This document shows positions 48,092 through 55,680 of a stretch of DNA of 64,000 nt, in pieces (the stretch's first letter is position 1; the number at the start of each line of letters is the position of its first letter). This DNA comes from Octopus vulgaris (taxonomy: Eukaryota): the NCBI GenBank assembly GCA_951406725.2, contig OX597825.1, forward strand, positions 62,062,001 through 62,126,000, written 5' to 3'. The position numbers and the translations under genes were made by a program. Below the pieces are notes generated by a model. It was not told the DNA's origin. It made no database searches and was given only the letters and a program-made list of their open reading frames with translations.

Positions 48092-48515
48092 ATATATATA
48101 AATCACAGTATGTGTGTGTAAAATGAGTGGCGCATACATTTCCACAGTTGTTAACTGATTTTCAACAAACTTTACACACATTACTTATGTCCCACAGATG
48201 GTCATGCTCTATAACATTTTACCCAGAGCTCCTGCATAAATGGACATAGTTTTTTTTTGTGTGTAGGGTCTTCCATACATTTCATAAAAGGGAAAGGAAT
48301 TTTGTCTATTTATTTATTTTGACTGCCTATCTGCAACGGTAACACAACACGTATTATGTTTCTGGTAATTTTCTTTCCTGTAAATAAATGTTTATGTTAA
48401 TTTAAAAGATTAATCCAAAGAAATCTTATTTAGCTGTTATTTTTAGCACAACACGTAGGTGAACGTAAAGAATATGCACACCTGGTGATTAGGTTAGGGT
48501 TAGGGTTAGGGTTAT

Positions 48516-48547
<32 letters not shown>

Positions 48548-49019
48548 ATTAAGGTTAGGGTTAGACCGAAAACGGATATTCTTTACCTCCGCCCATCATA
48601 TGTTATGTCTCCAGTAATTTTCTTTCATGTAAATAAATGTTTATTAAAAAATTTGCCAGCAAAGTCTTATAAAATGGCAATGTTCCAAAAGATGTACATG
48701 CTGATATGTTATACATGAAAATAAGAGTGAAAAAAATATGCTTAAAAAACAACTATATTTTGTAGTTGTTATCCATGATCTACACCCCAAACACTTCAGT
48801 AGCTCCCCTTTGCCTCACTTGCAAGCTTACATGTTCTATGATCATTTAAGTGTAACGACCTCCACAAAAACCAGCCCTCAATTTGATTTTCCATTCCTAG
48901 GTTAATTGTAAACATAGATTGGTGTGCTACACATAAACCTTCTCAGTAGTTCAATTATTTGGTGAAAAAAATACCACCAAAGCAACTTTAACCATCCAAA
49001 GGAAGGGTGTGTTTGCTAG
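48092..49019 (+). mobile_element. Possible non-autonomous Helitron with internal insertion
   Basis: Starts ATATATATAAAT + (GT)n and ends GGGTGTGTTTGCTAG followed by T; 5'-TC not visible. Confidence 0.4.
48489..48564 (+). repeat. Interstitial telomere-like (TTAGGG)n tract
   Basis: About 12 perfect or variant TTAGGG units. Confidence 0.92.
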
Positions 49020-53639: not shown

Positions 53640-54050
53640 GTTTTGGGCCTTTCAACAAACAATCACCCTCATCCAGGCAACCAAATCAGGAACAATGTTA
53701 GACCAGTTTGTGTCAAATTAGTACTATCCCAAATAGAACTACCCCTTCCAGGGGTCACACTACCTGATCCATAGCTTTCTGCCTCCATAGCCCACTTGAT
53801 GGTCTTCTCGCATTATTGTCGGTCTTATAGAGGGAGTGACTCGTAAGCGCTCTGCATTCCACCTCACAAGGATATCAGCTTGCTCACAACTTATTTTCAT
53901 GGTATAACATCACCAGCTTCACATATACATATTCCTTTTTTTATGTTTTCAGGCATGTGGTCATGCTGGAGTCCACTATGTCTTTGTACCTTTCCCACAG
54001 CCTACTTATACGATTGATTACTTCTGAGAGATGGGATATTAGATCACCAA
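53640..54050 (-). mobile_element. Decayed RTE-like ORF fragment
   Basis: SEVINRISR..W and distal W.xIV.D peptides resemble the post-RT region of RTE elements; many stops. Confidence 0.35.
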
Positions 54051-54054
54051 TCTT

Positions 54055-54350
54055 GCATGTTCTGTTGTATCTGGGGTCATGTTTTTTGTGCCTTATAATG
54101 TAACACACTCACTGGTAAAATTTCCACTTATTTCTTATTTTTATTTTCCTAAAATTTTCGTTGCGTCTTGCAACCTTTTCAATAGTCTTGACTCTCAAGA
54201 CTATTGTTAAGACTATTGAAAAGGTTGCAAGACCAACGAAAATTTTAGGAAAATATAAAAATAAAAAAGAAGTGGAAATTTTATCGGTGAGTGTGTTATA
54301 TTATAAGGAACAAAAAGAAAATGACTCTCCCCAGACACAACAGAATATGC
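54055..54350. mobile_element. Foldback element with two divergent variant hammerhead motifs
   Basis: Inverted arms of about 135 bp; HHR-like motifs at 54149-54185 (-) and 54213-54248 (+). Confidence 0.88.
54149..54185 (-). ncRNA. Hammerhead variant with U3-A8 core
   Basis: CTA-TTGAAAA-G-GTTGC-aagac-GCAAC-GAAA-AT-TT-TAG; palindromic AATT stem III. Confidence 0.55.
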
Positions 54351-54399
54351 TTCAACACACGAACTCATATAAAGAATTTGGTAAACCAAATCCAAAAAC

Positions 54400-55680
54400 A
54401 AAATCTTGCATGTGTTCTTCTTTTTTCTTGGTTCCAGGATTGATTGACACTGCTGTCCTTATCTGTACCTCATACTGGAATGTTGGCGCCTCAGGTATTA
54501 TGGATAGGAGAATGACAAATTCCATTTTTTGAAGACTTGCACATCCACATTGTATGGGTTCCTTAATTCTTTTAACAAAGAGTTGAAGAGCTATGGGCCT
54601 TTAAACCCTAAACTCTTGCAGCACCTGATCTTTACTTTAGATAGAGTGGACGGTTATTTTGGTGTTTTGCAATGACGTCCATCTAGGCTTTTGTATAATT
54701 CTTGATGCCAAATGAAATATTTATCTATCCCTAATTAAACATGCATGTTCTATTAGAACGTACATGTTTAATTAGGGATAAATATTACTTCTCAGTATTC
54801 AATACAGCTTCAGTCACTTACTCTTTTACTCTTTTACTTGTTTTAGTCATTTGACTGAGGCCATGCTGGTGCACCACCTTTAGTCGAGCAAATCAACCCT
54901 ACGACTTATTCTCTGTAAGCCTAGTACTTATTCTATCGGTCTCTTCTGCCGAGCTGCTAAGTTACGGGGATGTAAACACACCAGCATTGGTTGTCAAGCA
55001 ATGTTGGGGGGGGGGGAGGCAAACACAGACACACAAACATACATATATATACATATATACAGCGAGCTTCTTTCAGTTTCCTTCTACCAAATCCACTCAC
55101 AAGTCTTTGGTCGGCCCGAGGCTATAGTAGAAGACACTTGCCCATGGTTCCACACAGTGGGAATGAACCTGGAACCACGTGGTTGGTAAGGAAGCTGCTT
55201 ACCACACAGCCACTCCTGTGCCTAATATATAATTTTTAACAAGCCAACTTGATGCCAAAGTTTGGTGCTAGCCCTTCCAGAAATTTTCACACCAGTGATT
55301 AAAGACATTTTTCAGCCTCACCTAATAGTTCCTTTGCTGCATTTTGGCAATCTTTTTAGAGTAGTATATTATTGGATCAATTCCAGCTCTACTGTTTGTA
55401 GCTATGCAGGTACCATAAGTTCTCTGTCTTGCTTACTAGAATGCACTTCACTGATGAGCTCAAATATGAGCAAACCATATTCTATTATTTCCACCATCTA
55501 GCTGTGTAAGCAAGTTCCATTCTTATATGGGATTTCTTAATTTTCCAAAAATTTTCAGTGGTTGACAATGTTAAAGTCATATCCTTATATTGCTTTATGA
55601 TTAAGACTGTCCTAGTAGAAATTTGTGATAACTTGTTCCATGTGTAACCCCCATCTGATACATTTCCATAGCAGTATGTA
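54400..55680 (-). mobile_element. Decayed CR1/L2-like LINE 3' region, interrupted by a hairpin and a SINE
   Basis: ELELIQ..KKIAKMQQRNY*VRLK (cf. ELExIQR..KKI..YWERLK) and SLGFKGP*LFNSLLKELRN...VFKK. Confidence 0.7.
54726..54780. repeat. 55-bp near-perfect hairpin
   Basis: TATCCCTAATTAAACATGCATGTTCTA-T-TAGAACGTACATGTTTAATTAGGGATA. Confidence 0.9.

Follow-up and report, generated by a model that had tools for sequence, protein, structure and literature searches.

The window, a stretch of 64,000 nucleotides, carries at 54061–54401 a 341-bp insertion bounded by a 12-bp target duplication. Judged by its sequence, the locus is composed of two inverted 3′ ends (pLTRs) of a Penelope-like element that encodes a reverse transcriptase (RT) and a GIY-YIG endonuclease. 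The features are as follows.

54049–54060, plus strand: left copy of the target-site duplication, AATCTTGCATGT (12 bp; shared flank, repeat family D7)
54061–54195, minus strand: left arm, an inverted pLTR end without the tail, which ends about +131 to +137 from stem I
54149–54185, minus strand: putative minimal type I hammerhead with the majority sequence of the family: stem I CUA/UAG, core U3 U4 G5 A6 A7 A8 A9, a bulged G, stem II GUUGC/GCAAC, GAAA and an AAUU palindrome; predicted cut 54152/54151
54186–54212, no strand assigned: inversion junction; the sequence 5′ of stem I recurs here in short rearranged pieces
54213–54248, plus strand: second putative hammerhead copy, with one G missing and a 4-bp stem II; predicted cut 54245/54246
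54249–54320, plus strand: A-rich 5′ UTR of the element, from hammerhead to start codon
54321–54401, plus strand: opening 27 codons of the Penelope ORF (MTLPRHNRICFN...), with 67% identity to the sister N-terminus
54402–54413, plus strand: right copy of the target-site duplication (12 bp)

The succession of hammerhead, 5′ UTR and first 27 codons points to a 3′ pLTR whose parent is a Penelope-like element with the linker type of Neptune, and the peptide of 54321–54401 aligns to the N-terminus of an intact ORF of the sister family described below with an E value of 1e-10. The last ~60 nt of this segment form a tail that is present on one arm only, while the left arm has a small deletion near the start codon. 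The inverted repeat is longer than the hammerheads, the arms being identical at 127 of 146 aligned positions (87%), and a transcript reading through the insertion on either strand has a single extended hairpin as its predicted fold (−185 and −180 kcal/mol), in which the hammerhead motif would be buried. Being on opposite strands, the arms would anneal to one another in such a transcript, so that the locus probably forms no working dimer. The original prediction of a "hammerhead pair" stands as far as the two motif copies go, but the pairing itself is a structure of the insertion and probably not a functional dimer. On the folding model, the window copy is probably an inactive remnant that might give rise to double-stranded RNA. 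The insertion is flanked by two pairs of dispersed repeats of 84% identity (D3, 53207–53395/54823–55011; D4, 53421–53564/55074–55217), which look like common short interspersed repeats. A small palindrome at 54722–54784 (I25) has 31-nt arms, 90% complementary, around a 1-nt spacer.

Read in its own sense, the minus-arm motif (54185–54149) is CUA UUGAAAA G GUUGC AAGAC GCAAC GAAA AUU U UAG, an exact single match, with U3 at 54182 and A8 at 54177. The plus arm (54213–54248) has the same motif without one G, its stem II down to 4 bp (GUUG/CAAC), and places U3 at 54216 and A8 at 54221. UUGAAAA in both arms, stem I CUA/UAG, stem II GUUGC/GCAAC, GAAA, the AAUU palindrome, the UUU triplet and the base missing from the plus arm are all as first described, but that description left out an extra unpaired G before stem II, between A9 and G10.1; it lies at 54175 in the minus arm and at 54223 in the plus arm. 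When searched with a general descriptor of minimal hammerheads, whose core allows C3-G8 or U3-A8, the 64-kb window has exactly these two matches, and any descriptor match occurred in 1 of 100 shuffles with local composition kept. RNAfold gives stems I and II as the minimum free energy (MFE) fold of minus-strand 54200–54141, and stem II only for the bare 37-mer. In Rfam searches over the 64-kb window no family reached its gathering score, and none of the 42 matches of 54000–54450 at E ≤ 10 was to a hammerhead family. Sub-threshold miRNA matches in the latter search were rejected, as they reflect the long hairpin.

The motif has the anatomy of the minimal type I hammerheads of Penelope-like elements. 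The covariant U3-A8 core is accompanied by GAAA and an NUH triplet; one unpaired base at 9/10.1, followed by G10.1-C11.1, is found in both arms and in the sister family; and positions 15.2–16.2 are palindromic (AAUU) without a real stem III. The location within the pLTR, in sense to the ORF, also agrees, as seen in 16 of 29 loci picked with the endonuclease protein and in the ORF start of the plus arm. By this anatomy, the motifs at 54149–54185 and 54213–54248 are minimal type I hammerheads, predicted to be self-cleaving.

The parent element was recognized in longer copies, in which an RT/GIY-YIG ORF is followed by a microsatellite-rich 3′ UTR, the hammerhead, ~70 nt of UTR and the first ORF codons. 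In the 16 endonuclease-picked loci (17 of 30 if the query's own locus is counted) the unit lies in sense 0.3–1.1 kb past the GIY-YIG stop, and 14 of the 16 have U3-A8. One copy (L152) retains an open 618-aa frame with YVDD, CX4CxxC and GIY-YIG; its RT was assigned by the YVDD motif, the Pfam RVT_1 match in L152 being under the cut-off. Pfam GIY-YIG is over its cut-off in a second copy (L149, 28.7 vs 22.6 bits), and the linker CTNDNCMVC precedes GIY-YIG in both. A single ORF with RT and C-terminal GIY-YIG, as in EN+ Penelope-like elements, is found in these two copies and in the 1312-aa frames of the sister family. The CX2-5CxxC linker of the Neptune clade is present, a feature common to Nematis and Naiad too, and the parent is classed as a Penelope-like element with a Neptune-type linker, a putative clade assignment made by linker motif. 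The best homologue is an Octopus vulgaris hypothetical protein (62%), which comes from the young sister family and of which a piece matches the present genome at 100%, making an octopus the probable host. Its place in these longer copies makes the hammerhead unit the ORF-linked terminus of an autonomous element.

Copies of the ~205-bp repeat unit are numerous. Similarity searches gave at least 437–498 candidates, and a 33-letter motif pattern had 2575 exact matches versus 0 for the reversed control, a sample biased to well-kept copies because the pattern requires intact stems. Inverted pairs account for 39 of 57 non-duplicate loci, a set from which L031, L060 and L052 were excluded as duplicates. 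One short and one long arm are combined in 35 of the 39, the short arms ending mostly near +133 and the long arms mostly near +192. Direct or inverted pLTRs, a tail at one end and a target duplication (12 bp in the window; L170, L171), as in EN+ Penelope-like elements, accompany this asymmetry. A flanking string of at least 8 nt with at least three different letters is shared in 16 of 39 pairs by a loose criterion applied without a shuffle control. The inversion junction varies from copy to copy; together with the asymmetry of the arms, this indicates that each pair was made anew at insertion. One near-full-length copy (L171; G000:C9:98165000-98173000, minus strand) has a 5′ end that starts at unit position 134, the stop point of the short 3′ ends, so that the tail segment is present at both ends. 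An intrachromosomal telomere-like array of 12 GGTTAG repeats lies at 48492–48564 of the window, and similar arrays adjoin family copies at two other loci (L002 and L028).

The original prediction had asked whether relatives carry C3/G8, and a sister Penelope family does so at the equivalent place (L281:1437-6200, L282 and L233–L262; G000:C17:6330200-6336600 and others). Its hammerhead combines C3-G8 and GAAA with a G bulge and a C at the normally invariant position 9 (A9C). Stem II differs from that of the present family and has 6 bp, stem III is AG/CU and is capped by an AA loop, and the motif is identical over 42 nt in 25 of 30 loci. This motif was identified by eye, since A9C and the AA loop cause the palindrome descriptor to miss it. 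The change between C3-G8 and U3-A8 from one family to the other is a covariation and supports a real hammerhead. The sister family has open frames of up to 1312 aa and direct repeats or tandem units ~4.6 kb apart. It is very young, with at least 150 matches at 99–100% identity, and is the best candidate for a still-mobile element.

Within the family itself U3-A8 is the consensus, as had been anticipated. It accounts for 2419 of the 2575 exact matches (a count obtained by subtraction), beside 106 C3-A8, 44 U3-G8 and 6 C3-G8. The argument that a double change at exactly these positions signals selection for catalysis is weakened: the two positions are uncoupled inside the family, single changes dominate, and a whole subfamily has U3·G8. 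The C3-G8 doubles exceed the number expected under independence (6 vs 2.2, Fisher p = 0.02). Part of this excess is explained by subfamily structure. The six copies are not one family; L061, L062 and L065 have B-type flanks, where G8 is the background, and in L064 the two arms differ, one with C3-G8 and one with U3-A8. Independent variation at positions 3 and 8 had been proposed as grounds for refutation, but neutral decay of dead copies produces it as well, and the criterion does not discriminate between the readings. In the contigs of four public runs from four organisms, the share of any other letter at these two positions stayed below 5% of depth.

The U3·G8 subfamily (B; L203–L232, L097–L126) has the loop AAGAA and has lost C11.1 by CpG decay in 11 of 21 copies. 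U3·G8 is present in 19 of 30 copies chosen by flanking letters. When copies were chosen by a marker outside the motif, 16 of 21 readable ones had U3·G8, the rest being two U-A, two U-U and one C-G (first 30 of 60 matches listed; motif unreadable in 9 of the 30). A broader B marker yielded 14 U3-A8 and 9 U3·G8 copies (first 30 of 100 matches listed; motif unreadable in 7 of the 30). Divergence from the subfamily's own majority is 9.7% for B versus 4.1% for A in the ORF (9 copies each), and 10.0% (n = 22) versus 6.3% (n = 26) in the pLTR. On these divergences, the U3·G8 subfamily is the older one and the U3-A8 subfamily is younger and much larger. An ORF tree of 23 copies over 285 codon columns groups the B copies at 100% support and places the sister outgroup on a long branch among young A copies. 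Of 40 sites distinguishing the A copies from the B copies, the sister shares the A state at 18 and the B state at 14, and has another state at 8 (p = 0.6). With this outgroup placement and site split, the order of the core changes is unrooted, and U3·G8 may have arisen by reversal of U3-A8.

It is conceivable, though we consider it rather doubtful, that the family keeps a natural two-step compensatory path, from C3-G8 in the sister through the older U3·G8 wobble to the younger U3-A8. If this were true, with the wobble cutting weakly and U3-A8 restoring cleavage, a supposedly transient intermediate would have served as a master element able to transpose, and three naturally occurring alleles could be compared in parallel assays on scaffolds that are nearly identical. 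The amplification of the U3·G8 subfamily implies that a Watson–Crick 3–8 pair is not needed for spread. Between subfamily A and B1, 3 of 37 hammerhead positions and 16 of 79 flank positions changed, which is not significant (p = 0.11). This comparison kept 26 of 27 and 22 of 30 copies, and several of the flank differences fall inside the marker used to choose B1.

Lunse et al. reportedly described small variants of the Penelope hammerhead which cleave in dimeric form, and their account may cover U3·G8. The mostly open-access literature searched contained no account of U3·G8 or of the present family. Natural U3-A8 covariation was described in 2011 and called active in vitro, according to the available part of that report (PMC3088659). 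For 2014, the accessible text of Cervera and De la Pena (PMC4209133) gives U3-A8 minimal hammerheads in the pLTRs of Cercyon Penelope elements, Schistosoma mansoni, with ~1,300 descriptor matches. It also describes the extra base at 9/10.1, with the consensus letter H, the palindromic 15.2–16.2 and opposite-strand hammerhead pairs 100–700 bp apart in Penelope elements, and its supplement has a Crassostrea row with AAUU, UUU and a 3-bp stem I. The present family resembles the Cercyon elements, as far as that text goes, in the U3-A8 core, the extra base at 9/10.1, G10.1-C11.1 and the palindromic minimal stem III, as well as in the pLTR location, the mostly truncated copies and the opposite-strand pairs. 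It differs from them in host and element clade, in a bulge that is G and not H, in a 5-bp stem II and a 3-bp stem I, and in having a U3·G8 subfamily, of which none was seen described in the portions of PMC4209133 at hand.

Similar comparisons can be drawn with other elements. Like the Neptune/Nematis-type EN+ elements in the sections seen of Craig et al. 2021 (PMC8557442), the parent has RT followed by a C-terminal GIY-YIG, a CX2-5CxxC linker (here CX4CxxC) and frequent (TA)n neighbours. It shares with them inverted 5′-truncated copies with a tail at one end, which are given there as typical, but its tail is ~60 nt as against 30–40. The Poseidon element PAc of Anolis carolinensis, in the excerpted account of PMC11167929, likewise has a hammerhead at the pLTR/ORF start and two fixed 3′ ends within the ORF start, whereas it has C3-G8 and an ORF that starts at stem II; here the AUG lies ~75 nt past the predicted cut. 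Animal non-LTR retrozymes, in the partial texts of PMC7229834 and bioRxiv 10.64898/2026.07.22.740005, are also short, abundant, Penelope-linked repeats with type I hammerheads. They are, however, non-coding head-to-tail arrays of their own monomer, unlike the truncated, inverted autonomous-element end with ORF codons found here. Membership of the retrozymes was rejected for the present locus, an inverted pair that contains ORF codons and has no head-to-tail tandem monomers.

Taken together, we favour, at a probability of roughly 80%, a 341-bp insertion of two inverted Penelope-like 3′ ends whose U3-A8 hammerheads likely dimerize and cleave themselves slowly within RNA of the parent element. 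Same-sense hammerheads in a tandem transcript would pair through AAUU and cut after UUU, which would release unit-length RNA starting ~75 nt before the AUG. The element RT would then start from a staggered nick, using two fixed priming sites (about +133 and +192), and stop early, and the two short cDNAs would be joined head to head, giving an inverted pair with one tailed arm and a target duplication. Pairing and cutting in a tandem transcript are inferred from the family. Slow cutting is probable because the Schistosoma minimal hammerhead cleaved weakly, and only as dimer or trimer, in the accessible account (PMC4209133). The two fixed 3′ ends of family copies agree with the pair of RT start sites by which the tail of the anole element is set, as given in the text seen of PMC11167929. 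A point against this explanation is that stem I has just 3 bp and the triplet is UUU; in a cofold of two 37-mers, the hammerhead dimer was not the MFE structure. The spread of the U3·G8 subfamily, the unimpaired insertion of the anole catalytic mutants in vitro and a bulged G in place of the consensus H also count against it.

The motif may instead be of hammerhead descent with cutting no longer required, kept as a pLTR binding or folding signal for the RT or endonuclease, or hitchhiking, with U3 fixed by drift and position 8 drifting between G and A in an AT-rich genome. We regard this as unlikely on balance, at about one chance in four. It draws on the amplified U3·G8 subfamily, on the non-significant purifying selection on the motif (p = 0.11) and on the anole element, in which catalytic hammerhead mutants had no effect on insertion in vitro, so that cleavage was dispensable, and no RNA reads ended at the hammerhead cut site (PMC11167929, in part). 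Naiad elements, moreover, thrive without canonical hammerheads, according to the sections seen of PMC8557442. Against it, A and B1 are unchanged at the other core positions and in both stems, save for the C11.1 CpG decay and one loop base; the younger, larger subfamily has a Watson–Crick pair; and the intact sister family retains C3-G8 and GAAA despite a wholly different stem II.

We consider it improbable that the inverted pair is itself functional, as a non-autonomous retrozyme or fold-back element with two cooperating hammerheads. Inverted pairs are indeed the commonest form among the sampled copies (39/57), but varying junctions and asymmetric arms indicate that every insertion forms its pair anew, the unit is linked to the ORF of an autonomous element, at whose end it lies, and the opposite-strand arms pair mutually with the energies given above. 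A chance resemblance in AT-rich DNA is more remote still. The motif is short and A-rich and has no Rfam hammerhead match; set against this are the single descriptor match among 100 shuffles, the published Crassostrea row with the same AAUU, UUU and 3-bp stem I (PMC4209133, supplement, in part), and the canonical-pair hammerhead at the equivalent place in the sister family. This positional homology refutes a chance origin, unless the sister motif is also due to chance.

The U3-A8 hammerhead is itself not new, natural examples having been published in 2011 (PMC3088659) and examples from minimal hammerheads of Penelope elements in 2014 (PMC4209133), as the available portions of both papers indicate, and the present family adds one more host to this variant. 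The regular, two-ended and one-tailed inverted insertions fit the two-start-site priming reported in vitro. The useful part is the natural allelic series, C3-G8 with A9C, U3·G8 and U3-A8, in related elements of one genome, with which one could readily ask whether cleavage by the hammerhead is a condition for the mobility of Penelope elements.
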